Counted from the first letter of the stretch, positions 2,767 to 24,146 are shown. The stretch: DNA of 26,532 bases from a virus (IMGVR_UViG_3300049472_000071:1-26532); one strand, 5' to 3'. Numbers and translations: made by a program. Notes: generated by a model not told the origin, from the letters alone.

Positions 2767-2767
2767 G

Positions 2768-3436: not shown

Positions 3437-4137
3437 ATGTGTTTACAAGTAATTTCAGGATTAATATTCAACCAATAACTAAACATGCGCTCTAGTACAA
3501 ACGTATGGAAGGGGTAATAAGGGACTCCCATATCAGATAAAAACTTATCCCTTAGTTGTGGGTGTTTTCTAAATCTTGACTCTGTGTATGGGTACTTTGA
3601 ATCTTTCCAAAGCGCACTAAATAGCTTCTCGTTTTTCGGGTCGGACATTAACGCAATACAAGGGTTAAGTATTTCGTTCACATACCTTTTGTAAATATCT
3701 ACCTTAGCAAAAAAAGCATTTCGATAAACTACACATCGCATCTTTTGAGTTGAATTGTAAACGTGTCCTAGCAATCGGAATAATTCTTGATAACAAATGT
3801 CTATTCCTTTGTGAACACGTTCAGCATGTCGAAACATTTCAAAGTTGTCTTTCTTAAAACCAAAGAACGAAACAACATCGCTGCTATTTAATCCGTTCCC
3901 TATTTCTCCAACCGTTATAGGTCTTAGTTCTAGGTTAACTGTTTCATGAAAAAACTTATGTGACAAAACCGCAATATACTCACAATCATTAGTATGATTA
4001 GTGACTATATCGGATATTACTTGATTCTCAAAGAAAGGACTTACTTTTTTGTTTATGATAGGTATTGCAAAATCAATATCAATATTTTTGATACTTTCTT
4101 CATCAAAGGCAATTTGGTACGCTTTATATTTTACCAA
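3433..4137 (-). CDS. Putative glycosyltransferase, DUF4422-like
   Basis: FFENQ, YIAVLSHK, YRNAFFAK..IYKRY and FVLERMFSYW motifs resemble DUF4422-type GT-A domains. It is first in the GT cluster after a small ORF. Confidence 0.5.
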   Translation of the reverse strand: MVKYKAYQIAFDEESIKNIDIDFAIPIINKKVSPFFENQVISDIVTNHTNDCEYIAVLSHKFFHETVNLELRPITVGEIGNGLNSSDVVSFFGFKKDNFEMFRHAERVHKGIDICYQELFRLLGHVYNSTQKMRCVVYRNAFFAKVDIYKRYVNEILNPCIALMSDPKNEKLFSALWKDSKYPYTESRFRKHPQLRDKFLSDMGVPYYPFHTFVLERMFSYWLNINPEITCKHI

Positions 4138-7179: not shown

Positions 7180-7431
7180 CTAAAATTGTCTTCGTATTCT
7201 AATTAACGAGTAACGGCTTATGTCATATTTTACCAAAGTGTCATATGTGGCGTTTCTTAGAGGCTTTAATGTATTGGAATGGTGTTCCAATCTTTGCTTA
7301 AAATACTGGAATATCTCATAATGATAATCAAGCGTATAATTTACTATCCCGTTTTTTGCAAGTATGACTGCCACCTTTTCACCTTGACATTCTGGACAGT
7401 CCCTGTTAATTAGTTCTGCAATGTAGCTCAT
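7180..7431 (-). CDS. Hypothetical protein, possible C-terminal HTH
   Basis: 83 aa ORF with ATGA overlap to the tape measure stop. The C-terminus YDTLVKYDISRYSLIRIRR is HTH-like. Confidence 0.6.
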   Translation of the reverse strand: MSYIAELINRDCPECQGEKVAVILAKNGIVNYTLDYHYEIFQYFKQRLEHHSNTLKPLRNATYDTLVKYDISRYSLIRIRRQF

Positions 7432-9461
7432 ACTTTAAGTTTTGCTCTCGATTCTGTTACGTCTGTTTTTTTTGTTACTTTTTTAATGTCAACTACCGAT
7501 ACAACGGGGTTGCCAATACGTGCCATTGTTTCTGCCATTGTTTTGCTTATGTTGTTTTGAGCCAACACATCCCCCCCTATTGAATTACCAACTTGTGACA
7601 TGCCAGAAGTATCGACTGTCAGCGACCCGCCTCCGGCCATTGCAATAAGCCCGCTGTTTTTTGCTACTCTTGTTTGACCACGACCAGACAAAGGAGTTAC
7701 ACTAACACGTTCACGCCCCCCAGGATTATCACCTACCAAAAGTAAAGTGGGTTTGGTTGTTACAAAATCACCTCCTCCTGCTGCTGCACTTGGTTCTGAT
7801 TGTGCAATAGTGGCGACTTGTGCCGCCCCTGCTGCTGCTGTAATCCCAGCCAATACAAAGTTTACGGGGGGTGGTGCTGAACCCAAAGCAGAAGTGACTC
7901 CTTTTGCCGTATTGATTATCGCCTCGGTAACCGAAAATGCTTTTTGCACCTCAAAGTTGTCTTTTGATAATTGTTTACCTAACGAAGCTATTCCAGAAGC
8001 CACGGCAAATGTACCTTGTATGTATTTTTGTTTTTCGTCTTCTGCTTTTTTCTTCGAGTCTGCTTCTTTTTCATCATTGGCTTTTGAGTCTTCCGTCATG
8101 AAGTCTCTGGCTTCACGATTTATCTCAACCTCCTCTTCAGAGTTGTCACGTGTTTTAGCGACTACTTCATCAGACATTTCTAGTTGTTCATCTGTTGCAA
8201 GTCTTTTAAATGCCAAATACTCTTGGTCTTTTTCTAAAAGTCCGCTTATTCTTTTAGATTCTGCTGCCGCAAATTGGTCACGTCTTGCATCATATTTTTC
8301 TTGCAATGCTAAAGATTCGGTTTGAGCGTCTATTCTTTGTGCCTCTAATTGTAAGATTTTAAAATATGTTTCTTCCCTTGCTTTTGACCCCTCCCCTTGT
8401 GATTCAAGTAACGCCCTTTCAGCTTTTAATTCGTCGTCTATTAATGACAGTTTTTGTTTTGCTCTTTGTTCATCAGTCTTTTGAATTTTATCTAAAATAT
8501 TTAATTGCTGCTCATAACTTAAAGTAGAATTTTTTAATGCCTTTTCATTTATGGCTATTGTTTGATTTAGTTTTGCAAGCGTAACCAAGCTTTCATTTTG
8601 TTTTTGCTCTAAGTCATCCATTGCCTTTTCATACGCAATACCAGCAGCCGTAGCATCTGCCACAGATTTTGCCATATCCTCAAACTTGGTAGCAATAGTA
8701 TCAACGATTGGGACATTTTCCCTAATTACATTAAACAATGCCACAAATGGGGAGGCAATTGTTTTAAGTATCGGGGAAACTTTGTCAAACAACAAAGAGG
8801 CTAATTCCCCAATATATTTTGAGAATTCAACGACTGCCGAACTTGCCAAACTAACAGCAACTCCTACCCCTTTCATTACCCCTGCAAAGAAAGTGGCTGC
8901 ATCATCATTTTGGTTAAATAAAGCTACAAGACCAGTCAAAGCCGTAACTAATAAGCCTATTGGGTTTGTTGCTATAACCGTTCCAAGATTAACGATGCCG
9001 CTCCCAAAACTACCTGTTCCTGCAATCGCTTCTTTTATCGAAGCCGTGTAATTACCTACGTTTCGGGTGTTGTTGCCAAACCCATCTTCTAAGCCTTTAA
9101 GCCTGTCGCTTACGGCTTTCGCTTGTGTTTTTAAATCCGTATAACTCTTTGAAAGCTTGCCATTACCTAAATCAGTCTTTACGATTTCAGCAGTCAAAGA
9201 CTTATACTTTGCCCTTAACCCTTCAATCGTATTGTCGTTTAGCTTCGATTGGTTCTCGACTTCTTTAAGTTTGTTTTTATGTTCACCTAACTTAGTATTT
9301 ATAGATACTATTTCGTTTTGGGCTTTGATATACTCTTCCGTACCTACTTGTGCAGCCTTATACGACTTCTTAGCTTCGGCAAGTTGTTTGTTTAACTCGT
9401 CAATACTTTGAAGGTTTTTTATCTCTATCTCAAATATTTCTATCCTTGTATTGTCTGCCAT
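7428..9461 (-). CDS. Tail tape measure protein
   Basis: 677 aa, long helical/coiled-coil, RNVGNY motif, NPIGLLVTAL hydrophobic segment, Ala-rich AAAGAAQVATI and a C-terminal A.GG motif. Confidence 0.85.
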   Translation of the reverse strand: MADNTRIEIFEIEIKNLQSIDELNKQLAEAKKSYKAAQVGTEEYIKAQNEIVSINTKLGEHKNKLKEVENQSKLNDNTIEGLRAKYKSLTAEIVKTDLGNGKLSKSYTDLKTQAKAVSDRLKGLEDGFGNNTRNVGNYTASIKEAIAGTGSFGSGIVNLGTVIATNPIGLLVTALTGLVALFNQNDDAATFFAGVMKGVGVAVSLASSAVVEFSKYIGELASLLFDKVSPILKTIASPFVALFNVIRENVPIVDTIATKFEDMAKSVADATAAGIAYEKAMDDLEQKQNESLVTLAKLNQTIAINEKALKNSTLSYEQQLNILDKIQKTDEQRAKQKLSLIDDELKAERALLESQGEGSKAREETYFKILQLEAQRIDAQTESLALQEKYDARRDQFAAAESKRISGLLEKDQEYLAFKRLATDEQLEMSDEVVAKTRDNSEEEVEINREARDFMTEDSKANDEKEADSKKKAEDEKQKYIQGTFAVASGIASLGKQLSKDNFEVQKAFSVTEAIINTAKGVTSALGSAPPPVNFVLAGITAAAGAAQVATIAQSEPSAAAGGGDFVTTKPTLLLVGDNPGGRERVSVTPLSGRGQTRVAKNSGLIAMAGGGSLTVDTSGMSQVGNSIGGDVLAQNNISKTMAETMARIGNPVVSVVDIKKVTKKTDVTESRAKLKV

Positions 9462-9462
9462 G

Positions 9463-11484
9463 TCAGTACCATTTAATCAATTCACACTCCGTTGATTCAC
9501 CACTACCATCATACTGCCCTATGCTATTCAAATAATAATACCCTCCAAGATATTCGATGTACTTTAGTTTGGTATAGTCAACATTTGAGATGTCAAAAGC
9601 ATTCAAGTTAAAAGAAGCCCTTACTACGTTGGGGTTGTTCAATACTTTCTCTAGCTTCGAATAAGTTAATTGTAGGATCGTATTGCTTTGCACCGTATTT
9701 TCCAAAGAGCCACCAAATCCTAGATTATCATTTATAATAGGGTCTTGAACATTTGAAAGGTTGTTCAAAAAATAAGCGTATGGGATATGTGTGACGTTTT
9801 GCCCTGCTATACTTATAGTTGATATGATACCTTGTGTCAATTCTTCGACGCTAACGTTTGGCGCATAGTATAAAATCCTAGGTGTTGGGCTGTCGTCTTG
9901 TTTAATATATGGTAATTGCAAATATAAATCGGCAACCCCCGTAAATACATTCCTACTTTTGGTTGCCCCAAATGGTGCTTCGTAATAATCTTGCTGCCCG
10001 TCTAGGTAATCGTTATTTATGTCAATAGACCCCTCTCCATACTCTGACGAATAAGCAGCCTTGTATGCTTGCAATAACGTGTCATCCGTTAAGTCAGTGT
10101 ACTTAAATGTGTTTTTCTTTGCGTAATTGGAAACAAAATCATTGTAACTTGTCTCTATACTTTGTGACAAATCTAGTTTGTCAGACCAATCTTCTGCATT
10201 GTCAATTGTTAAATCCGTAATTGAATTCAATACAACCGAATTGCTGTATTTTTCGAACGACGGGATTACTCCAAAAACGGCAAATATATATTCAATAAAT
10301 TCTTTTTGTTTGATGTTGGCTACGTAGTTAGAAATCTGAACCTGACTACCAGCCACTATATCACGTGTAGGATAAAAAGCAAAAAAAGATTTTACTTTCC
10401 CAACGGGCATATATGTTGGATGCCATAAAATACTTGTCCCAACATCCGTGTTTTTTTTTCTGAAATATATTTCAAGATAATCCCCTGATGCCAATGTGAT
10501 TGAAGGAACTTGATATTCCAAAGAACCAAAAAAGTTTTCATGAACCAACACCCCATTTTTTAAAATATCAAGATACATGTAGTCATCAAACGTTGGGTCT
10601 GGCAAATACCCAGCACCATTGAATGCATGAACCTCAATCTGCATTATCATTGGTTCGTCAGCCGTGTACCGATAATTTGACGTATCATAATTACCTACAT
10701 ATGACGGACGTAGGTCAGTATTCTGGGCATATCCTGTTACGTTGTCAAGTTGAAGTATGACATTTGTAGTCGTTCCGTTTGATTGCTTTACTCCTGTCCC
10801 GCTTACGATTGCAACCCTGTCGTTTTTCCATTGTTCCGAATGGTAAGGAGTAATCCCGCAAAATGGTAAAAGCATCCGATATAAACGAGGGTCTTTTAAT
10901 AGCGAACCTTTAACCTTATATCCTAAATCTTGGAATATCTGTCTAAGTATGGTATGTGCAAAAACGGCAGGGAATATCTCACTTGACGTAATCGTGGCAC
11001 TCGATTTAGCTGCAAGACTTCCATAGTCAACTGGCAAATAAATATACCCATCTGTCCTTTCTTCAAGTATTTTATCAACTGTATTGTAATGGTCAAACCG
11101 TGACAGGTCTAAGTCATGAAGTGTTTTGTCCCCTATTGAATTAAACCAATCTACGTTTTTGCCGAAAAAAGTAATCTTTACATTGCCTTCAATTTCCTCG
11201 TCTTCGTCAATTCTTAAAAACCCTCGGTCTATTTCGTTGTTGTTATCCAATAATCGTGCAGCTATGTTACGATAAGGACTTGTCTGGCTTATCACATTTT
11301 TAACCGTGGCAAATCCTAAAGCCTCGGAAACTTCTGCTGTTAAAGGGATAGATGCAGTTGTCGAGAACGAACCTGATGTACTACCAGCATCGGCGAAGTC
11401 CGCAGCTTGAAAAGTCACACGAATCCTATTCTTTTGCGACATTTGCAGCACATAGCCAGTTTCCTCTATCTCTATTTGTATCAT
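9463..11484 (-). CDS. Phage tail/baseplate structural protein
   Basis: 673 aa next to the tape measure gene. GSFSTT.SIP N-terminus, YLPVDYG, DWSDKLD and YYLNSI...CELIK C-terminus fit siphovirus tail-tip proteins. Confidence 0.65.
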   Translation of the reverse strand: MIQIEIEETGYVLQMSQKNRIRVTFQAADFADAGSTSGSFSTTASIPLTAEVSEALGFATVKNVISQTSPYRNIAARLLDNNNEIDRGFLRIDEDEEIEGNVKITFFGKNVDWFNSIGDKTLHDLDLSRFDHYNTVDKILEERTDGYIYLPVDYGSLAAKSSATITSSEIFPAVFAHTILRQIFQDLGYKVKGSLLKDPRLYRMLLPFCGITPYHSEQWKNDRVAIVSGTGVKQSNGTTTNVILQLDNVTGYAQNTDLRPSYVGNYDTSNYRYTADEPMIMQIEVHAFNGAGYLPDPTFDDYMYLDILKNGVLVHENFFGSLEYQVPSITLASGDYLEIYFRKKNTDVGTSILWHPTYMPVGKVKSFFAFYPTRDIVAGSQVQISNYVANIKQKEFIEYIFAVFGVIPSFEKYSNSVVLNSITDLTIDNAEDWSDKLDLSQSIETSYNDFVSNYAKKNTFKYTDLTDDTLLQAYKAAYSSEYGEGSIDINNDYLDGQQDYYEAPFGATKSRNVFTGVADLYLQLPYIKQDDSPTPRILYYAPNVSVEELTQGIISTISIAGQNVTHIPYAYFLNNLSNVQDPIINDNLGFGGSLENTVQSNTILQLTYSKLEKVLNNPNVVRASFNLNAFDISNVDYTKLKYIEYLGGYYYLNSIGQYDGSGESTECELIKWY

Positions 11485-14438
11485 TGTCTTTGACCCAATA
11501 TTTGTGGATAGATAATATCAAACTCAATTGCATATAGCTTATCCCCGTCACTGTATTTTTTTATAGAGTCAGTATCAACGATAACGGTTATTTTTTCGGT
11601 TGTGCTAATCCATGCCTGAACACGTATTGAACTGATTATCTCACTAATTACATCTAATCTATCCTTCGTCACAAACTGGCTTCTGACAGTCACGATATCG
11701 TTTGAGTCTATTCTTATCTTGTCGTCTTGTGTTTCGCTTGTAAAATCATTAGGGAAATTTGCTAATATGTTTCTCCTTACAGTAACCGTATTGTCTGTTT
11801 TTTTCTCATAACTTTTCCTAGCTGTAAACAAGAAATGTTCCCAGTTCCCAAGTGAGTTAATCCACGATAGATAAATACTTTGTTTTGCGCACTCTTGATT
11901 TATTTCAATTGTTTTTTGTTCCGAAACTTTCAACTCAACCACCTCGGATAGTTCTTTGCCTGAAATGGTTGTAAAGTTGTTTGGGGCTGAATAACTGCCA
12001 CCTCCCCCAGTTGACCATGTACCATTTACTCTAGTGTAAATACGTTCACCTGTCACTACTCTAATAACATCCTCACTCTCTATTTTTATCGTATTTATAT
12101 TTGTGGAGTCTGAATTGCTTGACATTATGGTGTTTATGCCAGAATCTTGGACAAATGAAGTCCCGTTATAGATATATAAATTAGCTGTCGTACATACTGC
12201 TATATTGTTTTCATCCAATACACTTATTGAATTCTCGTTTGTACCAGCTATAACATCAATAGCTTGACCTTGACCTGTTGCCAATGGATATTTTAATACT
12301 TGAATCTGTCCCATAAAATGATATGGGATATATAATATATCTTCATGAATATCTATTTTAATCGAAGCATCACTTATTATATTCAAAGCGGTTGTTGAGA
12401 AAGTATACTCCAATACCCAAACGCCATTTGATACACGCTTATAAATTTCAGTGTCCCCAAACGGTGCTTGTGCAATAATATAGATAGTGCCGTTACTACT
12501 CATTACTACACCTTGAACATAAGGAGTAATCCCCATTGGCTCTATATTGACATTTGCATCTATACATGTTAATATATTTCCAGAAGCTCCATTGTTTGCT
12601 ACTACCCAATTATCTGTATCAAGCGCATATAAATAGTTGCCAACGAATGAAACGTCCCCACCTAAATAATTTGTTGATGTTCCGTCAATGTAAGTATAAA
12701 CTTCACTTCTATTTGAAAATGGGTTAAGTGCTAAAATAACCGCCTTGCCGTAATCAGTTACAAATACTTTTTCGACATTATAATTAGCTGTCAAAGCAAA
12801 TGAAGTATAAGTATCAAAACTACCTATAAAATAGAATGCAGTGCCTATCCCGTAAACACTGAACCAATCTGTATTTGTTTGATTTCTTACTAACTGTAAA
12901 CTCACACTTAACGAACTGCCTATCTTGTCATCAATTCTTAACCGATAAACGCCGTCTCCGTTGTTTTCAATCTCTGTGTCTAAAGTATCAATTAACTCGC
13001 CTGATTCATCATATCTGTTCAAGCGATAAATCAACCCATCTTCTGTAAAAGGAATGTCAATTGTCGTTTGTGGAATGATACAAGATATATCAAAATAATT
13101 GTTTGGGAATAAAAGTGGGGTTTCAAATCGTGTAAGAAACTTTCCTAATATTTGTTGGGTGTTGTAGTTCATGACATATTCTGCCATGTTACCACCATAT
13201 GTAGTCCTTTGTCTTGTCAATCCATCATAAAATTGGCGTGTTCCATTTTCTGCAAAGATATATGCTTTACAATCCTCACTAACATCCTCTACTATTGATA
13301 TACTTGACACCTCGGCATAATATGAACTACTAGATAATGGGAACTGAAAATATATAATAAGGTATTTTTTGGGTTCATTTAATGTAAATGTAATGTTTAC
13401 GTCTTCGTTTGCGTTTGTTACATAACCAGCCGAATATATTACATCATTTGGGGGTGTAACAGCTAACGAGTCTGACGCAAACAGCTTTATACTACACTCA
13501 TAACGCAATACACTTGACAGGCTTATCAAATACTTTAGGTTTATGGTATATGACTTGCTCGCAATGAAGTTTAACTCTTGGTATAAATATTTAGACCAGT
13601 TGCCCAAATTAGGACTTGAAGGTGTAACTCTTGCAGTCCCAGAGTTCCATGCCCACGCAGTTGAATAAACACTACCAATAGCTGAATTTATCTGTGACCA
13701 CCCATCAAGGTTAGATGTGAACTCCCCGTTTGCGATTGTTGTAGTTGTGCATGTATCTAGTATGTCCGTCGTGTACCCACTGACATACGTTTCTGGATAA
13801 GCACTTGCATAGGTATCATATGTCTCGGCGTATTCAATATAAAAGGAAGTCCACGCATTTAAGTCGTTTGGTCTGCCAGTTCCGTTTATGTCGTTGTTCT
13901 GGTTAATCTTTTGCTTAACTAAATCGGCAACATCAATGATTGAAACGTTTGAAAGGTTTGGTGCGATTGCAAAAGTACCAACATAACTCATTGGGTCAGT
14001 CGCTTGTAATGGGTGTTCAGGGGGTATGCCTGCATATAACTTGACTAATACCGAATAGTTTTCGTAATACCGTTGTATAGCCCCCGTGCTGGTTTCTGAA
14101 TAAGAAATATTCAATGTAATATACTCACCAGCAACTACCTCCTTGACTTCATAAATGCCAGAATAAACAGAACCTGTTACCTTTACTTTTTCTCCTACAA
14201 TGTAATTCTCGTATGCTGACCCTGCAAGATTGAAACGAGCAAATCCATTTCTATTCAATACTTCTGTATATGAGTCAATAGTGTCCTCGCTGTTTGTCGG
14301 AAACTTTGTATTACTAATCTTATACACAAGCGGCAAGTGTGCAGCAGACCAACGTGAGTAGTAGTAAGGGTCTTCGCCGTATTCAGGAGGGTTGTTTTCG
14401 TAAAGATAAGCGTCTGGTCTTTGTGTTACTGTCAACAT
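11481..14438 (-). CDS. Large tail structural protein with inserted carbohydrate-binding-like and beta-propeller-like domains
   Basis: 985 aa, beta-rich. C-terminal WINSLGNWEHFLF motif, an internal IANGEFTSNLDGW segment and a repeated short-strand region. Confidence 0.6.
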   Translation of the reverse strand: MLTVTQRPDAYLYENNPPEYGEDPYYYSRWSAAHLPLVYKISNTKFPTNSEDTIDSYTEVLNRNGFARFNLAGSAYENYIVGEKVKVTGSVYSGIYEVKEVVAGEYITLNISYSETSTGAIQRYYENYSVLVKLYAGIPPEHPLQATDPMSYVGTFAIAPNLSNVSIIDVADLVKQKINQNNDINGTGRPNDLNAWTSFYIEYAETYDTYASAYPETYVSGYTTDILDTCTTTTIANGEFTSNLDGWSQINSAIGSVYSTAWAWNSGTARVTPSSPNLGNWSKYLYQELNFIASKSYTINLKYLISLSSVLRYECSIKLFASDSLAVTPPNDVIYSAGYVTNANEDVNITFTLNEPKKYLIIYFQFPLSSSSYYAEVSSISIVEDVSEDCKAYIFAENGTRQFYDGLTRQRTTYGGNMAEYVMNYNTQQILGKFLTRFETPLLFPNNYFDISCIIPQTTIDIPFTEDGLIYRLNRYDESGELIDTLDTEIENNGDGVYRLRIDDKIGSSLSVSLQLVRNQTNTDWFSVYGIGTAFYFIGSFDTYTSFALTANYNVEKVFVTDYGKAVILALNPFSNRSEVYTYIDGTSTNYLGGDVSFVGNYLYALDTDNWVVANNGASGNILTCIDANVNIEPMGITPYVQGVVMSSNGTIYIIAQAPFGDTEIYKRVSNGVWVLEYTFSTTALNIISDASIKIDIHEDILYIPYHFMGQIQVLKYPLATGQGQAIDVIAGTNENSISVLDENNIAVCTTANLYIYNGTSFVQDSGINTIMSSNSDSTNINTIKIESEDVIRVVTGERIYTRVNGTWSTGGGGSYSAPNNFTTISGKELSEVVELKVSEQKTIEINQECAKQSIYLSWINSLGNWEHFLFTARKSYEKKTDNTVTVRRNILANFPNDFTSETQDDKIRIDSNDIVTVRSQFVTKDRLDVISEIISSIRVQAWISTTEKITVIVDTDSIKKYSDGDKLYAIEFDIIYPQILGQRQ

Positions 14439-16032: not shown

Positions 16033-16568
16033 AAAAAATTGACAACCCCTATTACCATTGGTGCAGGTAACGTTCTGATTTGACTTACCAACGCCTCTGC
16101 TTTACCAAAGTTATACTTTTCTTTGCTTGCTTTTGGTTGTAGGTAAATAGAGCAAATCAAAGGGTAATACTTATCCATCGCATCAAAAGGATGTGTCTTA
16201 TACAACGTGTCATACTTAGCAAGCAATATTTTTGCATCCTCAAATTGTGCTACCGTGTTTTCCCCTAAGTCCCCAAACTCCATTGTTTCAGACATCCATT
16301 TAATCTTTCGTATCTCGGAGTCGTTAATCTCATTAATGCCTGACGTTATCCACTTTGAAATAGAGTTCATGCAATAGTAGTACAGGCTGGTCTTGTTGCT
16401 ATTTGCCCAATCTTCTTTGCTTACTCCTGTCAGAATTGAAACAGCATTCAAGTCCACGTTGTCGCAAACTTGTAGCTTCACAAATTGTTCAAATGTAACA
16501 TCATCCCACGACTCTGGTAGTTCAATAAAAGTGTCGTCTATAAATAGTAGTCTTTCCATTCTTATCAT
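15855..16568 (-). CDS. Probable tail assembly chaperone (unshifted product)
   Basis: 237 aa with LPESWDDVTFEQF N-terminus. It contains the slippery AAT TTT TTT TTG (VNFFL) and has an ATGA overlap with the terL stop. Confidence 0.6.
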   Translation of the reverse strand: MIRMERLLFIDDTFIELPESWDDVTFEQFVKLQVCDNVDLNAVSILTGVSKEDWANSNKTSLYYYCMNSISKWITSGINEINDSEIRKIKWMSETMEFGDLGENTVAQFEDAKILLAKYDTLYKTHPFDAMDKYYPLICSIYLQPKASKEKYNFGKAEALVSQIRTLPAPMVIGVVNFFLLRFIVSQSGIEGSAPKQISAWKKLKLGLERSIKRLAFRLYLTAWQKETLKKRIILSN

Positions 16569-17992
16569 CTAAAGTCTTTACGAATTGGCTTGCGTTCTGC
16601 CATTCTACTAAATGTTTTTAACGGCTGAACAACTACGTTCTTGTGATACCATTGAAGGATGTAAAAACAATCCATTAAGTGGTTCATGAAGTCAACTGGC
16701 TTGCGTACAGCGTTGCCGTCTTTGTCTTCCATCCACTTGTAACGCTTCAATTCACGTATCAAATTTAGCGAATTTTTATCTACAAACAAGTTGTACCGTT
16801 TCACTATGTCTATACGCTCCTCAATTGAACCTGCGCCTTTTACGCAAGGGTGTATATTAAAACCAGCACGATTTATTTCTTCAATCGAATCAGGTCGTGA
16901 ACTATCGGCTTCAATACGGCTCTTATCTTGTACTATTCCGTGTAGGTGTGCTATCAAATCGCCCGTTGTTAGCCTATTCTTGTATAACTTTTCCGAGATA
17001 TAGCAATCATTACCTATCACTTTTATTTCCATCAAAGCAGAAGGGTCATTTGAGAAGCCAAAGTCTAAACCGTACCCTTTAAATTTACCTTCTATTTTGT
17101 CGTAATTATCAATGATTGTGAACTGGTCGTAAACTAAACCACCTTCAAACGGTCTAGGGTCTTGTTGATACAAAGCATGAAAAGTACGGGGGCTTTTATT
17201 CCTTACTTCCTCTAATCGCTCTAAGCTATGCTGTTCCCCCCAAAGTGGTTCACCTAGTTGTCTAGGGTCTATTTCATTAGGAGTTTCTTTTATTGCCTCA
17301 AAGAGTACTATGTGCCAATCCTTTTCAGTTGCTAGTATTCGCCCTGCAAGGTCGTCTTCATCCCATCGAGTCATACAAAGGATTATCTGGCTATCATTGT
17401 GCATCCTTGTTAGGAATACATCATTATACCACTCCCACGCTCTCGCCCTGAAGGTAGCCGATTGAGCCGCCACGCTGTCCTTTATCGGGTCGTCAATGAT
17501 TCCAATGTCCGCTGGCGTACCTGTAAGAGAACCACCAACGCCAATAGACTTGTAAAACCCTCGATGGTCAACTACCTCAAATATATCCGCATTACGCAAA
17601 TAACCGCCTTTTGAATCGCTTACAACATTCTTTGAATTTAATTTCGTGTCAGGAAAAACAGAAAAATACTTTTCGTCATCAATAATTCTTTGAACATCTC
17701 GATTGAAAGCACTTGACAGATCACTTGAATACGAACAACCGATAATCCGATTCTTTGGGTTAATGCCTAAAAGGTATGAAGGTAAACGTCTGGAAACTAT
17801 TTCACTTTTGCCATGTTGAGGTGGCATGAATACCATCAACTTTTTAATCTCTTTCTTTGCAAACTTATCGCAAGCGTCCATTAAAACGGTATGATGCCAA
17901 TTGACACGATAGTCTGGCTTAGTGTATTTTACGAACGTATTAAAATTACGCCTTGCAAGTTCTTGATATGCTTTGTCGTAATCAACATGCAT
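16565..17992 (-). CDS. terL: Terminase large subunit
   Basis: Walker A MPPQHGKS, Walker B GIIDDP, motif III MTRW, LYQQDP, and a nuclease domain with GLDFGFSNDP, ADS and NHLMD. Confidence 0.95.
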   Translation of the reverse strand: MHVDYDKAYQELARRNFNTFVKYTKPDYRVNWHHTVLMDACDKFAKKEIKKLMVFMPPQHGKSEIVSRRLPSYLLGINPKNRIIGCSYSSDLSSAFNRDVQRIIDDEKYFSVFPDTKLNSKNVVSDSKGGYLRNADIFEVVDHRGFYKSIGVGGSLTGTPADIGIIDDPIKDSVAAQSATFRARAWEWYNDVFLTRMHNDSQIILCMTRWDEDDLAGRILATEKDWHIVLFEAIKETPNEIDPRQLGEPLWGEQHSLERLEEVRNKSPRTFHALYQQDPRPFEGGLVYDQFTIIDNYDKIEGKFKGYGLDFGFSNDPSALMEIKVIGNDCYISEKLYKNRLTTGDLIAHLHGIVQDKSRIEADSSRPDSIEEINRAGFNIHPCVKGAGSIEERIDIVKRYNLFVDKNSLNLIRELKRYKWMEDKDGNAVRKPVDFMNHLMDCFYILQWYHKNVVVQPLKTFSRMAERKPIRKDFR

Positions 17993-17994
17993 AA

Positions 17995-18507
17995 CTATTT
18001 TTTAGCATCTAAGATTGCTTTTAGAACGTCATCACTTAATTTAGAATAGTCAATGTCTTCTTTAATTGATTCACCTTTGGTTGTATGGTCAACTCCTGTC
18101 TTGTCAACTAATCCAAGTTTACGAGCAATGATATTAGGGTTATAAGCCCCAACTGTTGCCCCCTCAAACTGTTGTGATTCAATAATAGTTCTTATAGCTT
18201 TAGTGACTCCGAAAAAATCCTTATATGAACCTTCGTTTGATTCATAATTTTTAAACGTATCTCTGTCTATATCAGCGTATAAGCAAAATGATTCAATAGA
18301 CATTGGTGTATTTGTTGGAATGTCAATCAAAGTTCCTGCCAAATCCCCTGACTTAATAGCTTCCTTTTTGTTCCAAACCTTTGTACTTATCCATTCAAAG
18401 TATTTTACAGCCTCGTCCCAAAGGAGTTCAGGAGTATAGGAAAACCCCCTCCCATGCTTATTTCTAAACGACCAATAATTATTTCCTTTTTCAAACGGTA
18501 CTGGCAT
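17995..18507 (-). CDS. terS: Terminase small subunit (P22 gp3-like DNA packaging protein)
   Basis: FEKGNNYW, TPELLW..A..YF.W, PMSIESFC and GA.VGAYNPNIIARKLGL motifs. It lies directly upstream of terL. Confidence 0.9.
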   Translation of the reverse strand: MPVPFEKGNNYWSFRNKHGRGFSYTPELLWDEAVKYFEWISTKVWNKKEAIKSGDLAGTLIDIPTNTPMSIESFCLYADIDRDTFKNYESNEGSYKDFFGVTKAIRTIIESQQFEGATVGAYNPNIIARKLGLVDKTGVDHTTKGESIKEDIDYSKLSDDVLKAILDAKK

Positions 18508-18579: not shown

Positions 18580-18768
18580 TTAATCCCGACGTAGTAAGCC
18601 ATAGTCTCGTTTTACCTTCAAGTCGTAAAGCAGGTAACTCTTGCTGCTTTTGTCTGGATAAATGGCTGAACTTGATAACGGCTTTTTGTCGCACGTCAAT
18701 CCAAATTCATTTAAAACTTCGTCAAAATACTGTTCGTGTTCAATAGGTATTGTTATTTGTCTTAGCAT
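18580..18768 (-). CDS. Hypothetical protein
   Basis: 62 aa, ATG start overlapping the end of the HTH gene. Confidence 0.55.
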   Translation of the reverse strand: MLRQITIPIEHEQYFDEVLNEFGLTCDKKPLSSSAIYPDKSSKSYLLYDLKVKRDYGLLRRD

Positions 18769-18989
18769 ATGTTTATTTTTTTACCCAATACCGACATATA
18801 AATGTTTATGATGTCAATCGAGAACGCAAATTTACCATTTTCTATTTTGGATATGGTGCTTTGACTTAATCCTGAAAGTTCGGAAAATTCATCTTGACTA
18901 AGCAATGAGGCATACCTTTCGTCACGTAGTGTTGCCCCCATGCTAATACGCATTTCTTGTAGTTTTGATTTTGGTATTTTAGTTGTCAT
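18762..18989 (-). CDS. XRE/Cro-C1 family helix-turn-helix protein
   Basis: LRDER...LSQDEFSELSGLSQSTISKIENGK is the canonical XRE HTH pattern. Confidence 0.9.
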   Translation of the reverse strand: MTTKIPKSKLQEMRISMGATLRDERYASLLSQDEFSELSGLSQSTISKIENGKFAFSIDIINIYMSVLGKKINIC

Positions 18990-18995
18990 GAATGG

Positions 18996-19487
18996 TTATT
19001 GTTTTACTTCCCAACTTTTTGAATAATTATGGTTTTGATAATATGCCGCAATGCCCAATTGCTGTTTTAGCCTGATATATTCTTCTGCTTCCATACCGAG
19101 GTTTTTTGCTATCTCTATATCTGAAAGCCCTAATTCATTCAGTTTTACGACTAAGTTGGACATGCTTTCTACCTTGTGCATCCCTTTTATTCTGTTCATT
19201 AAAACGGTCAATTGCATCGCTTGTTCAATAGTTATTTGCAAGTCGATTACCATTGCTTTTTTTGATTCAAGGCGTTTTAATGTCTCATACCTATGCTCCC
19301 CGTCAATTATCCTGTATTTGCCTTTTTCTTTGTCGAAAGTGGTTATAATTGGAAAAAGAAAACCATACGTTTTGATACATTCTTTTAACAAGTCCATTTC
19401 AGTCTTTGGCATTTTGTTCGGGTTGTAGTCATTTGCATATAGCATGTCAATGTCTACTACTATTGGGGTTACGAATTTGATTTCCAT
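18996..19487 (-). CDS. ParB/Srx-like nuclease-fold protein (IbrB/YbdM-like)
   Basis: LYANDYNPNKM, GFLFPII, IIDGEHRY and NRIKG.H, plus a C-terminal HTH (SDIEIAKNLGM). TAATG-coupled to the IbrA-like gene. Confidence 0.9.
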   Translation of the reverse strand: MEIKFVTPIVVDIDMLYANDYNPNKMPKTEMDLLKECIKTYGFLFPIITTFDKEKGKYRIIDGEHRYETLKRLESKKAMVIDLQITIEQAMQLTVLMNRIKGMHKVESMSNLVVKLNELGLSDIEIAKNLGMEAEEYIRLKQQLGIAAYYQNHNYSKSWEVKQ

Positions 19488-20563
19488 TATAGTATGTCTA
19501 TATATTTTTGTTTAACTATTTGTCTTTTTTCTTCGTGGTCAGTTCTTACGTCCGTTATGTTTTCAAAGTCGTTTATAAGTAGTTGTCCTACTTGCTGTTT
19601 ATACACGTCCTCGTTATTTGGGTGGTTTTCGAATCGTTTTATAAACCTTGCTTTTTGTGATGGATTGTGGTGGTTGTCCAATAGGAAGTCCCGAAACTCC
19701 TTCCATGTTTTGTAATGAGTAGGAAGTTTCTCGTTACTATACATTTGCTTTTCCTTCACATATCTCATCGCTGTCGCCACTCCTTTTATCCTTTGACATA
19801 GCCAATGGTAGGTTTCAGGTTCAAACTCTGGCAAATCGGCAAGGCAATCAAAACTTTTTTCGTGTATGAGGCAAGATACCCTCATGTTTTCCTTATGGTA
19901 GTTTTTGGCAAATTGCCAATCATACACCTTGTTGTACTTCACTTGGTTGTCAAACATATACCTCCAAATGTCATCAAAACCAAAATCGTAGATAGGGTAG
20001 AAATTTATTAGATTTGAGTTTGACGTTTTGGTACTCCAATTAATACCTTCAATTGCGGGGTTTTTGGTCACAGCCCGATACCTGTTAAGGCTTTCAGAAC
20101 TTCTTAACCCTATTAACTGTGCCGTTGGTTCTTTGTACTGGCTTTCCAATGCTGGCAATAGTTTTTCCCATGTCAGATTGGAAGGCAAACCTAAATCTTT
20201 TATGCTATCTTTTTCAAGTTCACGGATATGCCCTCCGTCCCAACAGTTGAGATAATCCTGTTCGTAACTTGCTGAATTAGTCATTTGAAAAGGGACTTGA
20301 TACCACCTGAATATTACATTATGTTGCCTTGACAAATGCCTTATTATTGCAATCGTATTAGCATATTCAGCTTCTTGGTCAATAAATACAGCCTCAAACG
20401 TCCTATTTCGTCTTATAGCTTCTTTATGTACCAAATCAAACATTACGCTACTATCCTTACCGCCGCTTACCGAAACTGTTATATGTTTGTACAAGTCAAA
20501 CAATAACGATATTCGTTCCCTTGCAGCATCAACTACGGTATTTAGTTTATAAATTCTTGCCAT
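19487..20563 (-). CDS. PAPS-reductase-like PP-loop protein (IbrA/YbdN, DUF3440-like)
   Basis: PP-loop VSVSGGKDS, FIDQEA, GLRSSESLNR, YPIYDF...DIW and MRVSCLIHE. Confidence 0.9.
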   Translation of the reverse strand: MARIYKLNTVVDAARERISLLFDLYKHITVSVSGGKDSSVMFDLVHKEAIRRNRTFEAVFIDQEAEYANTIAIIRHLSRQHNVIFRWYQVPFQMTNSASYEQDYLNCWDGGHIRELEKDSIKDLGLPSNLTWEKLLPALESQYKEPTAQLIGLRSSESLNRYRAVTKNPAIEGINWSTKTSNSNLINFYPIYDFGFDDIWRYMFDNQVKYNKVYDWQFAKNYHKENMRVSCLIHEKSFDCLADLPEFEPETYHWLCQRIKGVATAMRYVKEKQMYSNEKLPTHYKTWKEFRDFLLDNHHNPSQKARFIKRFENHPNNEDVYKQQVGQLLINDFENITDVRTDHEEKRQIVKQKYIDIL

Positions 20564-21053
20564 GGCAATTATGTGTGTATCTTTTTTGTGACATAAAATC
20601 TAAAAATCTTTCTATTACATAGTCTGTTTGAAGTATTTTATTACTATCCATTGACACGCTTAGATAGTATCCCTCGTTTTTCTGTTTTGCAAGCAATTGA
20701 TGTGGGCTGTGACCATCCAGAACAAAATAAAGCCCCTTTTGTGGCTTTATTTCTTTTTTGTTTAACCCCCTCAACACAAATGTAGAATCACAATAAAGTA
20801 TTAAATGATGTGTAAACTTATTATACCCCTTGTCAGTGTGGAGCGGAGTTTGCTTTTGCACTCCAATATAATGGGGGCTTGACGTGCCGATATTATTCCC
20901 CCACGTCTTTAGCTTGTGTTTTTTGTCTTTGAAAATATATTTCAAATCTAAAACGGATACATATGGCGTTTCACATACAATGTGTTCGATGTTATAAAAT
21001 GGGTACTCTGACTCATTTTCTTTTAACTGGTATGTCTCGAAATCTACTTTCAT
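20547..21053 (-). CDS. Putative 2OG-Fe(II)-type (double-stranded beta-helix) oxygenase
   Basis: HxD (TPLHTD) followed by beta strands, G.YFVLDGHSPH (distal His) and a final strand YLSVSMD. Confidence 0.55.
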   Translation of the reverse strand: MKVDFETYQLKENESEYPFYNIEHIVCETPYVSVLDLKYIFKDKKHKLKTWGNNIGTSSPHYIGVQKQTPLHTDKGYNKFTHHLILYCDSTFVLRGLNKKEIKPQKGLYFVLDGHSPHQLLAKQKNEGYYLSVSMDSNKILQTDYVIERFLDFMSQKRYTHNCHGKNL

Positions 21054-21646
21054 GACTTAAATGTTAATGATTGTCTTTTACTACTTCTACGTTTGTCTAT
21101 TGCCGAAACCCCTTCAATATGGTCAACTAGATTTGGCACTACTACCCAATATTTTATCTTATTCTGTTTAAAATATGATGCCATCATTATATCGGTTGGA
21201 CATCCTTTTTCAGTCATTGTCTGTTCGTATTCTTTCCCAAATTGGTAGATTTTTTTTGCCATGCCATTTGGTAGGTAATAACATTGTTGCATGGAAAAAT
21301 TGCCACCCAATTCATACCTACTCCCTTTTGTCAAATCTGCATTTCTTCTGGAAAAAAACTGGATTACTTCATTAGGTCTTTGTTTAATCTCAATAAGGCA
21401 TTTGTCCATAAAGTTCTCACATAATATAATGTCATCATCCATTTGGACAGTTGACTTCTCTCCAGCCAAATGCAACCCATTTAGATAATTTTTCCATGCT
21501 GATGTAATTATCTCATTATCATTAGTATAATTATCGTAATTTACAATTATATCATTAATGTTTTGCTTTATATTTTCAATATATTTTTCTCTGTTTCTAC
21601 AGGTTTGTACTATAAAAACTGGAATCAAATTGTGCTCTAAGTTCAT
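21050..21646 (-). CDS. Putative GT-A fold glycosyltransferase
   Basis: FIVQTC..RE start, VQMDDDIILC (DxD), PTD catalytic-base-like motif and PNLVDH...S, a GT25-like pattern. Confidence 0.65.
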   Translation of the reverse strand: MNLEHNLIPVFIVQTCRNREKYIENIKQNINDIIVNYDNYTNDNEIITSAWKNYLNGLHLAGEKSTVQMDDDIILCENFMDKCLIEIKQRPNEVIQFFSRRNADLTKGSRYELGGNFSMQQCYYLPNGMAKKIYQFGKEYEQTMTEKGCPTDIMMASYFKQNKIKYWVVVPNLVDHIEGVSAIDKRRSSKRQSLTFKS

Positions 21647-22622
21647 TGTTGAAAATTTTATCGTGGAAGTAAGATTCTAGCTTGTTGTTAATCAATTTTA
21701 GCTGAATTATGTCTTGAGAATATTTTAGGCTCGCCTCTATATACAGCCATGAATGAGGCTTTACGATTGGCATCTCGGCAAGTACGATGGTTTCAAACTT
21801 TTCAAAATCGCTAGGTTGGCTATGTATAGACAAAAACTTAACTGATTTATTTTCAATATATTTACCTATCATTTTCGGGTATATACCTAAAGCGTTTATC
21901 ACAATACAAGCATTTTTAAGGTCTTTTGTTGCCTTGTTCAATGCCTCGTATTTTGTTTCTATCAAATTTATTTGCTCGCTACAAGCATTATATAGCTTGA
22001 TTGGATTGGTAAACTCAGAAGTTTCTTTTGATTTGCGTGTGATATACTTTTGCAAATCCTGTTCTGTCATTTGCCACTCAACAAACTGTCTTTTTTTGAA
22101 AAAACAATCGTAGTCCTGAATATAATAGTCTTTTATTTTGTCTTTCAATACCGAAAAAGAATGAGCCAAATCAACACCGCCGTTATTTTTTTCCTCAAAA
22201 TGATTGCCTTTGAATGTGTTGTAAGACCCATATCCAAGTATGTTTTTACCTAATAAGTAAAACGGGTAAAATATCTCGTGCGGCTCAGTGTAGAACGGTA
22301 CTATGTCAGTTACTATCACATTTTTTAACCCTTGTGATATGTTTTTTAAATAGTCTTTTTTGCCGTCCCCAAAATAAACACACTTCAATACGTTGTCAAT
22401 TACCAGTAGTGAGTTTTCATTTACCGTTTTGGTAAACTCAATCCAATTCTCGGTCTTATTTAGGTCTTTTAACGGCAATATCAAAGCCTCGATACCTTCA
22501 TATACTTTTGCCCTATCTTTTTCGCATAAAATATAAATATTGCTTGGGTTTATCTCTTCGATTGATTTTCGGATAAAATTAACCCTACTTTTGTCCGATT
22601 TTGTGACGTAAAACTTTTTCAT
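21597..22622 (-). CDS. Degenerate (probably ATPase-dead) SNF2-like helicase paralog
   Basis: The start is revised to ATG 22622 (ATGA overlap, GAGG upstream). Segments align by eye with the neighbouring helicase, but Walker A/B and motif VI are eroded. Confidence 0.6.
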   Translation of the reverse strand: MKKFYVTKSDKSRVNFIRKSIEEINPSNIYILCEKDRAKVYEGIEALILPLKDLNKTENWIEFTKTVNENSLLVIDNVLKCVYFGDGKKDYLKNISQGLKNVIVTDIVPFYTEPHEIFYPFYLLGKNILGYGSYNTFKGNHFEEKNNGGVDLAHSFSVLKDKIKDYYIQDYDCFFKKRQFVEWQMTEQDLQKYITRKSKETSEFTNPIKLYNACSEQINLIETKYEALNKATKDLKNACIVINALGIYPKMIGKYIENKSVKFLSIHSQPSDFEKFETIVLAEMPIVKPHSWLYIEASLKYSQDIIQLKLINNKLESYFHDKIFNNELRAQFDSSFYSTNL

Positions 22623-23836
22623 AATACCTCTTTTAACTCTTTTTTGGTTATTGATTTGAAATACATCAAATTGTCGTACTTTTTGTCGTTGTTTTCTTTC
22701 ATTAAACTGCAAAGTTTCTTGTTTGATTGGAGTCTAATGTATATGCAGTCTTTCGTTTGACCAGTCCTATACGTCCTATACTTGTATTGGTCAACCTTTG
22801 CGAAATCCCATGTCTTGTCAAATTCAATAGTGACGTGCCTAGATTGTAGGTTAAGGCTCATTGCATCTGATTGGATGCTCAAAACTGGAATATTTGGGAA
22901 TCGCTTTTTACATTCTTTTTTGCTATCAATGAACTTGCAGTAAATGATTACATTTTCTTCCCCATAATAGTCAATATATGTTTTACAAATGGCAAACTTT
23001 TCTTCCGAGCAACTATACACATGCTGCATCTTCATTGTCATCTCAAGGAAAATGTTGTTGTTCATGAATTGCAGTTTTTCATTGTCAAGATATTTTACCT
23101 TCAATCGCTTATATTCCTCATTTTCTTCATCAGAAACCTTATAGCTGGCATCAATGTATTGCATCCCCACCTCTAGGCATAAATCAGCCTCATAAACGTA
23201 TGGTCGAATTAGCGAATACAAGTAATCAATGTTGTGATACTGAACAATATACTCTTTAGTATAGCCTTTTTTGCCCCCAAAGAACTTCGTCACCTTTTTG
23301 TATTCGCAAAACGTGTTTTTAAATTCAGCATCGGACATGTTTAGAATTTTCCTAGAAAGGAAGTCCATTTGCGGTTTAATGTCCAAAAGGTTACGGCTTA
23401 TGGGTGTCCCATTTAGAATCAACTTGTATTCACATCTATTGCTAAGTTCCTGAATACGTTTCGTGCGATTAGCCTCCACGTTTTTTATCAAAAGGCTTTC
23501 GTCACACACCAAAAAAGTATTTTTACTTTCGACCTTATTTAGCAATTCAAGATAGATTCTGTCGCTACTGCTTAGGCTTTCGATTCCATAGTAATATATT
23601 GGCACATCAAAGCCTCCCCACTTGTCCACTTCTGATTTAATGCCAGAACCTTCCATTATCGGATTGACTGATTTGAAAGGCGCAAGCCAAACTACTTGCT
23701 CAATATTAGGCGCACTTTTAATCAATTCAATTGCCGTCCTACTTTTACCAGTGCCGGGTCTTTTAAACAAAGCCCCTACTTTCAATAACGAAAGCTTGTC
23801 TATCGCTTGTGATTGGCTATCTAATAAGGCTTTCAT
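22619..23836 (-). CDS. SNF2-family (SF2) helicase/ATPase
   Basis: Q motif LLDSQ, Walker A PGTGKS, Walker B VCDES, motif III NGTP, motif V SLNLQ and motif VI QYKYRTYRTGQ. Confidence 0.9.
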   Translation of the reverse strand: MKALLDSQSQAIDKLSLLKVGALFKRPGTGKSRTAIELIKSAPNIEQVVWLAPFKSVNPIMEGSGIKSEVDKWGGFDVPIYYYGIESLSSSDRIYLELLNKVESKNTFLVCDESLLIKNVEANRTKRIQELSNRCEYKLILNGTPISRNLLDIKPQMDFLSRKILNMSDAEFKNTFCEYKKVTKFFGGKKGYTKEYIVQYHNIDYLYSLIRPYVYEADLCLEVGMQYIDASYKVSDEENEEYKRLKVKYLDNEKLQFMNNNIFLEMTMKMQHVYSCSEEKFAICKTYIDYYGEENVIIYCKFIDSKKECKKRFPNIPVLSIQSDAMSLNLQSRHVTIEFDKTWDFAKVDQYKYRTYRTGQTKDCIYIRLQSNKKLCSLMKENNDKKYDNLMYFKSITKKELKEVL

Positions 23837-24146
23837 TTACTTTTGATTCTATTGGTTCTATTCTTGTTGGAACGTGTGTTTCTACGTGTACATGAAAAGA
23901 AGGCTCTACGCGCTGTTTTTCTGGGTTAAACCAGCCTTCTTTTTTAGTAGAATATTGAAGTTCTTTTTTTTCTAATATCCATGCTGCTATCCAGTAGGCA
24001 TCTGACTTTTGTACATCATAATCCTGCCCGAATATTTGTGTCTTTTGGAGTATAGCCTCTGAACCATCAAATGCAACTGCTTTATATGCTTTGTCGCTTA
24101 TAGAGGTGAGACTCGAAAGCTTCACCGAATAGCATTTTGTTTTCAT
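23817..24146 (-). CDS. Hypothetical protein, coupled to helicase
   Basis: 109 aa beta-rich ORF overlapping the helicase start by 20 nt. Confidence 0.75.
   Translation of the reverse strand: MKTKCYSVKLSSLTSISDKAYKAVAFDGSEAILQKTQIFGQDYDVQKSDAYWIAAWILEKKELQYSTKKEGWFNPEKQRVEPSFHVHVETHVPTRIEPIESKVNESLIR

Follow-up and report, generated by a model that had tools for sequence, protein, structure and literature searches.

A phage IbrA/IbrB cassette with SNF2-type partners and exchangeable tailoring genes as a candidate DNA modification system

The viral contig IMGVR_UViG_3300049472_000071 (a whole viral contig of 26.5 kb, whose full 26,532 nucleotides are here called the window) carries a cassette of seven coupled genes that encodes the PP-loop enzyme IbrA and the ParB/Srx-fold protein IbrB together with a helper protein, a SNF2-family ATPase, a pseudo-SNF2, a glycosyltransferase-like protein (GT) and a cupin. 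We found that this cassette is a variant of the kind already annotated as IbrA/IbrB and not a member of the TET/JBP or Dnd systems. Its fixed core is IbrA plus IbrB (IbrAB), and the GT and cupin are swappable add-ons. Based on genes, folds, motifs and co-occurrence, we tentatively propose that IbrAB may adenylate phage DNA and add a non-sulfur group to it, and that the GT and cupin would decorate the product.

The seven open reading frames (ORFs), all on the minus strand, are, from the upstream end, the helper gene (23817..24146, 109 aa; phrog_5809, E 7.9e-43), a minimal SNF2-family ATPase (22619..23836, 405 aa; PF00176, E 5.7e-8), the pseudo-SNF2 (21597..22622, 341 aa counted from ATG; fold model described below), a GT of GT-A fold (21050..21646, 198 aa; phrog_854/GT25-like, phrog_854 E 2.2e-7), a cupin or double-stranded beta-helix metalloprotein (20547..21053, 168 aa; HxD...H triad and Atlas structure matches), IbrA (19487..20563, 358 aa; PF01507 E 8.5e-16, PF11922 E 1.1e-7, phrog_2302 E 6.7e-78) and IbrB (18996..19487, 163 aa; PF02195 E 2.9e-8, phrog_2159 E 1.3e-42). 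Successive junctions overlap by 20, 4, 50, 4, 17 and 1 nt, the last being a TAATG coupling between IbrA and IbrB. An earlier sequence-only reading of this DNA had described the same ORFs, junctions and motifs (GKS in SNF2, DDD in the GT, HxD in the cupin and SGGKDS in IbrA), all of which are present, and its protein assignments are supported by domain and PHROG matches and, for the pseudo-SNF2 and GT, by AlphaFold/Foldseek models.

To describe the neighbourhoods, co-occurrence was counted within 4 kb in non-redundant loci with flanking room. Anchoring on IbrA used the 80 best among 593 confirmed matches, which came from 11 of the collection's 64 parts; 64 of these loci were non-redundant and 51 had room. 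IbrB was present at all 51 and some tailoring gene at 43, including a GT at 8 and a cupin at 1; IbrA-type genes are estimated to occur in ~3,700 IMG/VR stretches. Anchoring on the GT drew on the best 80 of 137 viral loci and on 10 loci from genomes, of which 72 were non-redundant and 56 had enough flank; of these 56, 52 had IbrA and IbrB, 36 a terminase, 19 a cupin, 11 a GNAT gene and 4 a pseudo-SNF2. The cupin anchor yielded 9 loci, with two near-copies and two on contigs shared with other anchors, and all nine had both GT and IbrA; a GT lay near the cupin in 37/39 cases. The pseudo-SNF2 anchor yielded 5 loci. The pattern is therefore nested: a cupin implies a GT and a GT implies IbrAB, while the reverse does not hold. 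Recurrence of the GT and oxygenase-like gene beside IbrAB, which the sequence-only reading had named as a check on its proposal, was thus seen in 9/9 oxygenase-anchored loci. The six enzymes that it had joined into one system, by comparison, are not a fixed set, and we rejected them as an invariant unit from the neighbourhood counts: an IbrAB core is combined with a SNF2-type module and an exchangeable slot, and GT, oxygenase-like gene, pseudo-SNF2 and IbrAB recur together only in one other contig (L098). Among the loci examined, a GT, a cupin and a SNF2-type partner were together only there and in the window; L098 is a Bacteroidetes contig that begins at the pseudo-SNF2 and has GT and cupin in reversed order relative to the window. 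The closest IbrA (73%) lies in a pseudo-SNF2-GT-IbrA-IbrB array on a 140-kb phage contig (L003:8001-11121).

The contents of the slot were counted at 58 loci with a GT just upstream of IbrA, where the gap held a cupin alone (20), a cupin with a further enzyme (5), a GNAT gene (10), a methylase-like gene (6), other genes (5) or nothing (12). One of the enzymes added beside a cupin looks, from its motifs, like a UDP-sugar epimerase. Small N6/N4-methylase-like genes often fill the slot (PF01555, E 5e-8), with a DPPW-type motif in 23/24 and 21/28. From gene occurrence, the GT is a first-tier, exchangeable tailoring gene of IbrAB. The cupin is likely a second-tier one that acts after the GT and not before it, because the GT is often found without a cupin, with acetyl- or methyltransferases filling the slot.

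IbrA combines PF01507 (PAPS_reduct) and PF11922 (DUF3440), both over cut-off, and has the motif S33-GGKD-S38; the PP-loop is present in 136/143 relatives. Searched against the PDB as a profile, it had its best matches in CysD (E 3.2e-7) and FAD synthase (at E 3.7e-6), with PAPS (3'-phosphoadenosine 5'-phosphosulfate) reductase lower (E 0.029); both CysD and FAD synthase adenylate an oxyanion. Single-protein searches with IbrA returned nothing in the PDB sequence search or in a scan of viral contigs, where the alignment scan succeeded. PAPS and APS (adenosine 5'-phosphosulfate) reductases of the CysH type have a C-terminal catalytic cysteine in ECGxH, and APS reductases have CC...CxxC cluster ligands. 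Among the 143 relatives, ECGxH occurred in none, CC in 7 and CxxC in 3, five proteins lacked cysteine entirely, and no alignment column had an invariant cysteine (best column 46/65), which argues against sulfur metabolism and against classic phosphorothioation. NCBIfam CysH models gave 27–30 bits against cut-offs of 154–165, and on these grounds IbrA was rejected as a CysH PAPS/APS reductase. Likewise, TIGR03183, used to test for DndC/SspD/BrxP, gave 24 bits against a cut-off of 290; DndC was matched weakly at E 5e-9 and BrxP at E 6.7e-9, both over short stretches (PADLOC coverage ~60–90 residues), and no DndD/SspC/BrxC or desulfurase partner was found among ten window proteins scanned. Lacking the cysteines, a full-length family match and cognate partners, IbrA was not assigned to DndC/SspD/BrxP.

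IbrB is predicted from its sequence to be a nucleoside triphosphate (NTP)-binding protein of the ParB/Srx fold. The family has DGxHR in 178/178 members and GxRR in 2/178, and it matches SerK (E 2.2e-6) and SbnI (E 1.7e-5) weakly, with ParB/Noc scoring higher. We rejected a chromosome-segregation ParB, as the canonical GxRR box is nearly absent and a Pfam scan found no ParA among the window ORFs. When IbrA was modelled with ATP and IbrB, the complex score was 0.82, compared to 0.00 for the best of 3 controls; the mark for this score was reached by 116/157 solved complexes and 2/215 mismatched pairs, counts that are only a rough guide here. Contact agreement between runs was at least 86%, and partner predicted local distance difference test (pLDDT) values were at least 72. 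In the model, IbrB tail 138–162 packs against IbrA 1–13 and 193–219, and the modelled interface residues IbrA D198/W200/Y210/Y214 and IbrB G145/Y155 are invariant. The model supports binding of IbrA to IbrB via the IbrB C-terminal tail.

The window's SNF2 protein has G28-T-G-K31-S and D112-E113. Walker A, D112/E113 and the arginine fingers R354/R357 were each found in 26/26 relatives and motif III was found as well, so that it is predicted to be an active ATPase. The subfamily occurs in 115 isolated-phage records, where the Flavobacterium phage proteins are 47–48% identical to the window SNF2, and it adjoins IbrAB in 7/7 inspected loci (FCL-2, 23T, CHPC1062, D4276, Bsingle, phiAQ113 and phiCs5676-1). 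It is therefore supported as a dedicated IbrAB partner. DNA modification, the role proposed by the sequence-only reading, is supported as the most likely one. Homologues of the phrog_5809 helper directly precede SNF2 in FCL-2, 23T, L004, L005, L099 and L143. The pseudo-SNF2 keeps the fold (AF2 pLDDT 92; top Foldseek match Snf2h, E 1.3e-7, TMq 0.63) with Walker A in 0/37 family members and the Walker B DE of the active copy replaced by DN, i.e. with the catalytic Glu lost. It is colinear with the window SNF2, if weakly so (hhalign E 0.01), and had no match in isolated phages by tblastn. As modelled, it is likely a DNA-binding subunit without catalysis.

The GT model (pLDDT 95) has a GT-A fold (best VIA Z 13.6, root-mean-square deviation 3.2, 170 aligned) and a DxD-type motif, D70-D-D72, of which D72 is invariant in 116 members; PF01755 was matched by 9/116. 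JGT-like DNA glycosyltransferases are described as sharing the motif set R...DDD...EDY/F (bioRxiv 2023.12.21.572611). The EDY/F motif was found in 6/124 GTs, and the window GT has PTD at the conserved D152; it was accordingly not placed among the JGT-like enzymes. A GT profile found nothing in the PDB sequence search, and among isolated phages tblastn found the GT only in Microbacterium phage Hendrix. At its genome end (L002:5872-9995), this culturable phage has the GT, a second GT, a methyltransferase, an acyltransferase and IbrA.

The cupin triad H72-x-D74...H118, plus H61, is conserved in 44/44 non-redundant members. Its Atlas structure matches were Asp/Asn-hydroxylase-like domains with template-modelling scores of 0.52–0.61, under the Atlas bar for naming a family, as well as a 2OG-FeII_Oxy_3 cluster (0.94), although a terminal Arg is not conserved in the cupin. 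TET/JBP and the usual 2-oxoglutarate (2OG) oxygenases conserve a 2OG-binding Arg on the last strand; at the equivalent position 130, the cupins have Y25/N17/K2 of 44. Only weak Asp_Arg_Hydrox and Cupin_2 matches appeared among 28 members scanned, Tet_JBP matching 0/28 at E 0.1 and AlkB likewise none of the 28. The cupin had no match in isolated phages by tblastn, and its profile found nothing in the PDB sequence search. We therefore rejected TET/JBP membership: the jelly-roll HxD...H is there, but neither a Tet_JBP match nor the last-strand Arg, and the cupin may be non-oxidative. Another link between cupins and IbrAB is gp104 of mycobacteriophage Gaia (L112:6311-7210), an IbrB with a fused N-terminal cupin annotated as ectoine-synthase-like.

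IbrA loci fell into two subtypes. Among 143 non-redundant loci (from 180 dereplicated at 90%), 41 carried SNF2, pseudo-SNF2 or both (SNF2-type) and 96 an additional ParB, a small unnamed domain or both (ParB-type), while 6 had neither kind of partner and none had the two kinds together. The window IbrA belongs to a 37-row clade (FastTree, local support 100) with pseudo-SNF2 in 35, SNF2 in 24 (one a fragment), GT in 10 and cupin in 2, every member having SNF2 or its ATPase-dead paralog; on the IbrA tree, the 41 SNF2-type rows need 3 changes. In the tree of GTs, the 10 sequences from SNF2-type loci do not group together: 7 changes are needed, 5 of them imposed by starred branches, and several branches are long. 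The window GT clusters with 18 GTs from ParB-type loci. Tailoring genes thus appear, from these sequence trees, to move between SNF2-type and ParB-type cassettes. The unnamed domain (~100 aa, FAKTM...PH.Y, e.g. L032:3794-4102) has no Pfam or PHROG match, marks ParB-type cassettes, with 36/56 GT loci, and in many cases forms a fusion with a class I methyltransferase. Six loci (L119, L121, L132, L135, L140 and L141) have two IbrA-like genes, from different clades in some, and L132 shows a tandem duplication of pseudo-SNF2-IbrA-IbrB.

The IbrA/IbrB pair was present in 219/50,697 phage records and 731/72,556 plasmid records, and the names IbrA and IbrB stand on records of relatives. In Streptococcus thermophilus phage D4276 (L116:3987-7768), acrIIA5, a 123-aa gene, SNF2, IbrA and IbrB form one coupled run, and CHPC1062 (L109:2987-6771) has the same arrangement with a close acrIIA5 homologue; in both, the run sits between lysin and cro. 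AcrIIA5 is a validated anti-CRISPR (PMC6060171). No SNF2 of this subfamily and no GT adjoined IbrAB in Pipefish, Laroye, PhiR5_2, Gaia, L338C and two Enterobacterales plasmids. On a Klebsiella plasmid (L205:5977-7838), a lone IbrA-IbrB lies between insertion sequence remnants, directly upstream of iro siderophore genes, and IbrA matches 323 Klebsiella plasmid records. On a haloarchaeal plasmid (L204:1934-6074), a ParB gene and a 261-aa gene precede an IbrA that shares 42% identity with that of the window, and another gene of the PAPS-reductase family is close by.

That the partners include SNF2, pseudo-SNF2, an extra ParB and N6/N4-methylase-like proteins suggests DNA as the target. In the mechanism we propose, the IbrB C-terminal tail would dock onto IbrA, the pseudo-SNF2 would grip DNA and the active SNF2 would drive the complex along the DNA, a role that in the other clade of IbrA would fall to the extra ParB and small unnamed domain. 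IbrA would adenylate an oxyanion as CysD and FAD synthase do, most likely a DNA backbone phosphate by analogy with DndC/SspD/TdpC, and TdpC reportedly forms an adenylated intermediate. More speculatively, IbrA without cysteines could use a nucleophile other than sulfur to displace AMP, and the SerK/Srx-like fold of IbrB might provide or activate this nucleophile. Judging from the nested gene occurrence, the adduct would bear a free OH or NH that is acetylated or methylated in relatives and glycosylated here, after which the cupin would change the sugar or the glycosylated adduct. The likely benefit would be escape from host nucleases. The position of SNF2-IbrA-IbrB after acrIIA5 in D4276 gives an anti-defence context. 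A PAPS-domain/methylase fusion in a vibriophage gave escape from Dnd (bioRxiv 2021.05.05.442762), and acr-aca operons include PAPS reductase genes (PMC13551039). A more specific version, which we consider unlikely, is that IbrAB carried by SNF2 and pseudo-SNF2 uses adenylation to make a sulfur-free backbone-phosphate adduct that the GT and cupin convert to a modified glycosyl adduct, which would be a second natural class of backbone modification, varied combinatorially by tailoring genes in thousands of phages.

Several observations weigh against a DNA-modifying cassette of this kind. Subtype exclusivity comes mostly from one split on the IbrA tree and so does not amount to many independent observations, and terminase linkage was found for only 2/29 SNF2-type IbrA-anchored loci compared to 24/33 ParB-type loci. 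SNF2 can be missing (no SNF2 match in the L003 contig, which is 60% complete), as can the pseudo-SNF2 in FCL-2 and 23T. The top GT fold matches are protein or glycan GTs, including the viral mimivirus R655, STIV A197 and PBCV-1 capsid GT, the cupin resembles protein hydroxylases in the Atlas, and protein substrates fit both folds equally well. Lone IbrAB on plasmids and in PhiR5_2 carries an annotation as a co-activator of gene expression from prophages, and a DNA shield does not readily account for this; an Escherichia coli study of IbrA/IbrB reportedly found that prophage eib genes are activated. Phages of F. columnare that have SNF2-IbrAB but lack the GT were typed by EcoRI digestion (PMC9304149; data not shown there) and are CRISPR-targeted (PMC5524643), so that any mark is no blanket shield. 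Finally, our literature search, with subscription papers mostly outside its scope, returned no biochemical or genetic data on IbrAB or this gene set.

The fold resemblances would suit a cassette that modifies a protein (a host defence factor, transcription machinery or a virion protein), with IbrAB adenylating or otherwise conjugating the protein, and with GT, hydroxylase, GNAT and methyltransferases as its tailoring enzymes. We nonetheless doubt this explanation, because the dedicated partners (SNF2, pseudo-SNF2, an additional ParB and N6/N4-methylase-like proteins) suggest a DNA target and the structural region already has a separate GT cluster (see below). Somewhat less probable is a small-molecule product, in which IbrB phosphorylates a metabolite (compare SerK/SbnI) and IbrA adenylates it (compare FAD synthase/CysD). 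The result would be an ADP-linked molecule serving as donor, signal or inhibitor, with variants made by the tailoring genes. The weak SerK and SbnI matches, the small-molecule substrates of the closest solved IbrA relatives and the frequency of IbrAB alone favour such a product, but ParB/Noc outscore SerK for IbrB, a DNA motor with a dead motor paralog is hard to fit with something soluble, and 43/51 IbrAB loci have no GT to use a donor.

The sequence-only reading had invoked a base-directed route, in which TET/JBP-like hydroxylation of a base by the oxygenase is followed by glycosylation by the GT, with ParB/SNF2 activating the oxygenase or bringing it to its site. Published examples exist of phage T-dioxygenases that are activated by ParB and accompanied by GTs and terminases (PMC13229309), and both the invariant triad and the adjoining GT in most cupin loci would fit. 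We find this order of events improbable given the absence of Tet_JBP and AlkB matches, the variable last-strand position and the scarcity of EDY/F among the GTs; moreover, the dependence is reversed, as the GT was found without a cupin within 4 kb in 37/56 loci, oxygenases elsewhere in the genomes not having been searched for. Phosphorothioation by IbrA with a host cysteine desulfurase, using SNF2 as the NTPase and mimicking host Dnd/Ssp marks, appears more improbable again. It could draw on the short DndC and BrxP matches, on the requirement of phosphorothioate systems for a PAPS domain plus an NTPase (PMC12914056) and on the anti-Dnd precedent (bioRxiv 2021.05.05.442762), but DndC requires cysteines for its 4Fe-4S cluster and for sulfur transfer (PMC10853773), and sulfur offers no obvious acceptors for the GT, GNAT and cupin. 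The phosphorothioate-type role raised by the sequence-only reading is accordingly weakened by the lack of a conserved cysteine in IbrA. Least credible is IbrA as a sulfur-assimilation auxiliary metabolic gene (AMG) of the CysH type with incidental neighbours: PF01507 does match, and DUF3440-bearing phage 'cysH' genes, including those of D4276 and CHPC1062, have been treated as AMGs (bioRxiv 2021.01.05.425418; PMC8879888), but ECGxH is absent, the CysH scores are far below cut-off, and IbrA has a fixed IbrB partner and a predicted complex with it.

Apart from the cassette, the window contains capsid-region genes, a terminase and a head protease of the ClpP type, with the main genes all on the minus strand. 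The named sequences most closely related to the cassette come from Flavobacterium phages and from assemblies of Bacteroidota, and the host is therefore likely a member of the Bacteroidota. After a 6-nt gap, IbrB is followed by an XRE helix-turn-helix (HTH) gene (18762..18989, minus strand; PF01381, E 2.5e-10), a possible regulator of the cassette; phage 23T likewise has an HTH gene at the end of this module, and its product matches the window XRE protein at E 5e-6. The sequence-only reading had the XRE gene correctly after the seven genes, but its placement of the cassette directly upstream of the terminase did not hold, since a 62-aa ORF (18580..18768) and a 72-nt gap precede the terminase small subunit (17995..18507, minus strand). 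This gene and the large subunit (16565..17992, minus strand) were identified jointly by PF16677, PF03237, PF17288, phrog_606 and phrog_38. Coupling runs on upstream of the cassette (24433-24146, TAATG) and is frequent throughout the window; by itself it does not delimit the unit, which is supported instead by the conserved neighbourhoods. Promoter (32 versus 32.6) and terminator (5 versus 5.4) scans were at chance level, the repeats seen resembled chance matches, and a sequencing-run search listed no RNA holder.

A second cluster on the minus strand lies past the capsid-region genes (214-4137) and is a possible virion glycosylation unit, so that virion glycosylation may be covered separately. 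It consists of two glycosyltransferase-like genes (2230-2766, PF00535; 2768-3436, phrog_14945), three enzyme-like ORFs (678-1418, 1409-2233 and 3433-4137) and a methyltransferase-looking ORF (214-681). Between the terminase and head protease (7428-14438, minus strand) are three large ORFs (985, 673 and 677 aa) without a Pfam match, of which 7428-9461 has weak tape-measure matches in an unusual position for such a gene. No portal was recognised among the window ORFs in Pfam and PHROG scans.

IbrA-type genes are very common yet are counted in print as sulfur-metabolism AMGs, a label that the IbrA motif data argue is wrong. Phosphorothioate is described as the sole known DNA backbone modification (PMC12914056), and a sulfur-free IbrAB adduct, if true, would therefore represent novel chemistry as well as a novel means of evading restriction. 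As the core is present in the cultured phages D4276, CHPC1062, Pipefish, 23T and FCL-2, and Hendrix has IbrA and the GT, the question is testable now, and the nested gene pattern sets the experimental order: core, then GT, then cupin.

Compared to known systems, the cassette resembles DNA phosphorothioation systems (DndC, SspD, BrxP, TdpC) in pairing a PP-loop PAPS-reductase-like enzyme with an NTPase, and Dnd also has a ParB-family gene (PMC10853773, PMC12914056); it differs in having tailoring enzymes and no conserved cysteines, desulfurase or DndD/SspC. Phage clusters with 5mYOX (TET/JBP) and GT-A enzymes likewise bring together an oxygenase-like gene, a GT-A, ParB, epimerases, methyltransferases and a terminase (PMC13229309, bioRxiv 2023.12.21.572611), whereas here the cupin has no TET/JBP match, the GT is independent of the cupin and a PP-loop enzyme is the core; PAPS and Ibr terms are absent from the main text of the 5mYOX paper (PMC13229309). 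The PAPS-domain/Dam fusion of Vibrio phage P5a shares a phage PAPS-reductase domain and has a demonstrated anti-Dnd effect, but the available text describes a single methylase fusion and no IbrB, SNF2 or GT (bioRxiv 2021.05.05.442762). Closer are the Flavobacterium phages FCL-2 and 23T (ORF109-SNF2-IbrB-IbrA(-HTH)), which share the helper gene, SNF2 subfamily and IbrA clade with the window; these phages, and the SNF2-IbrA-IbrB arrays of Streptococcus, Lactobacillus and Clostridium phages, lack the pseudo-SNF2, GT and cupin. IbrA/IbrB pairs elsewhere couple a PAPS_reduct plus DUF3440 enzyme to a DGxHR ParB-fold protein just as the window does, and to this pair the window adds SNF2, pseudo-SNF2, GT and cupin. 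What this locus contributes is a SNF2/pseudo-SNF2 subtype joined to a GT and cupin slot, a nested tailoring order and a predicted IbrA-IbrB complex.

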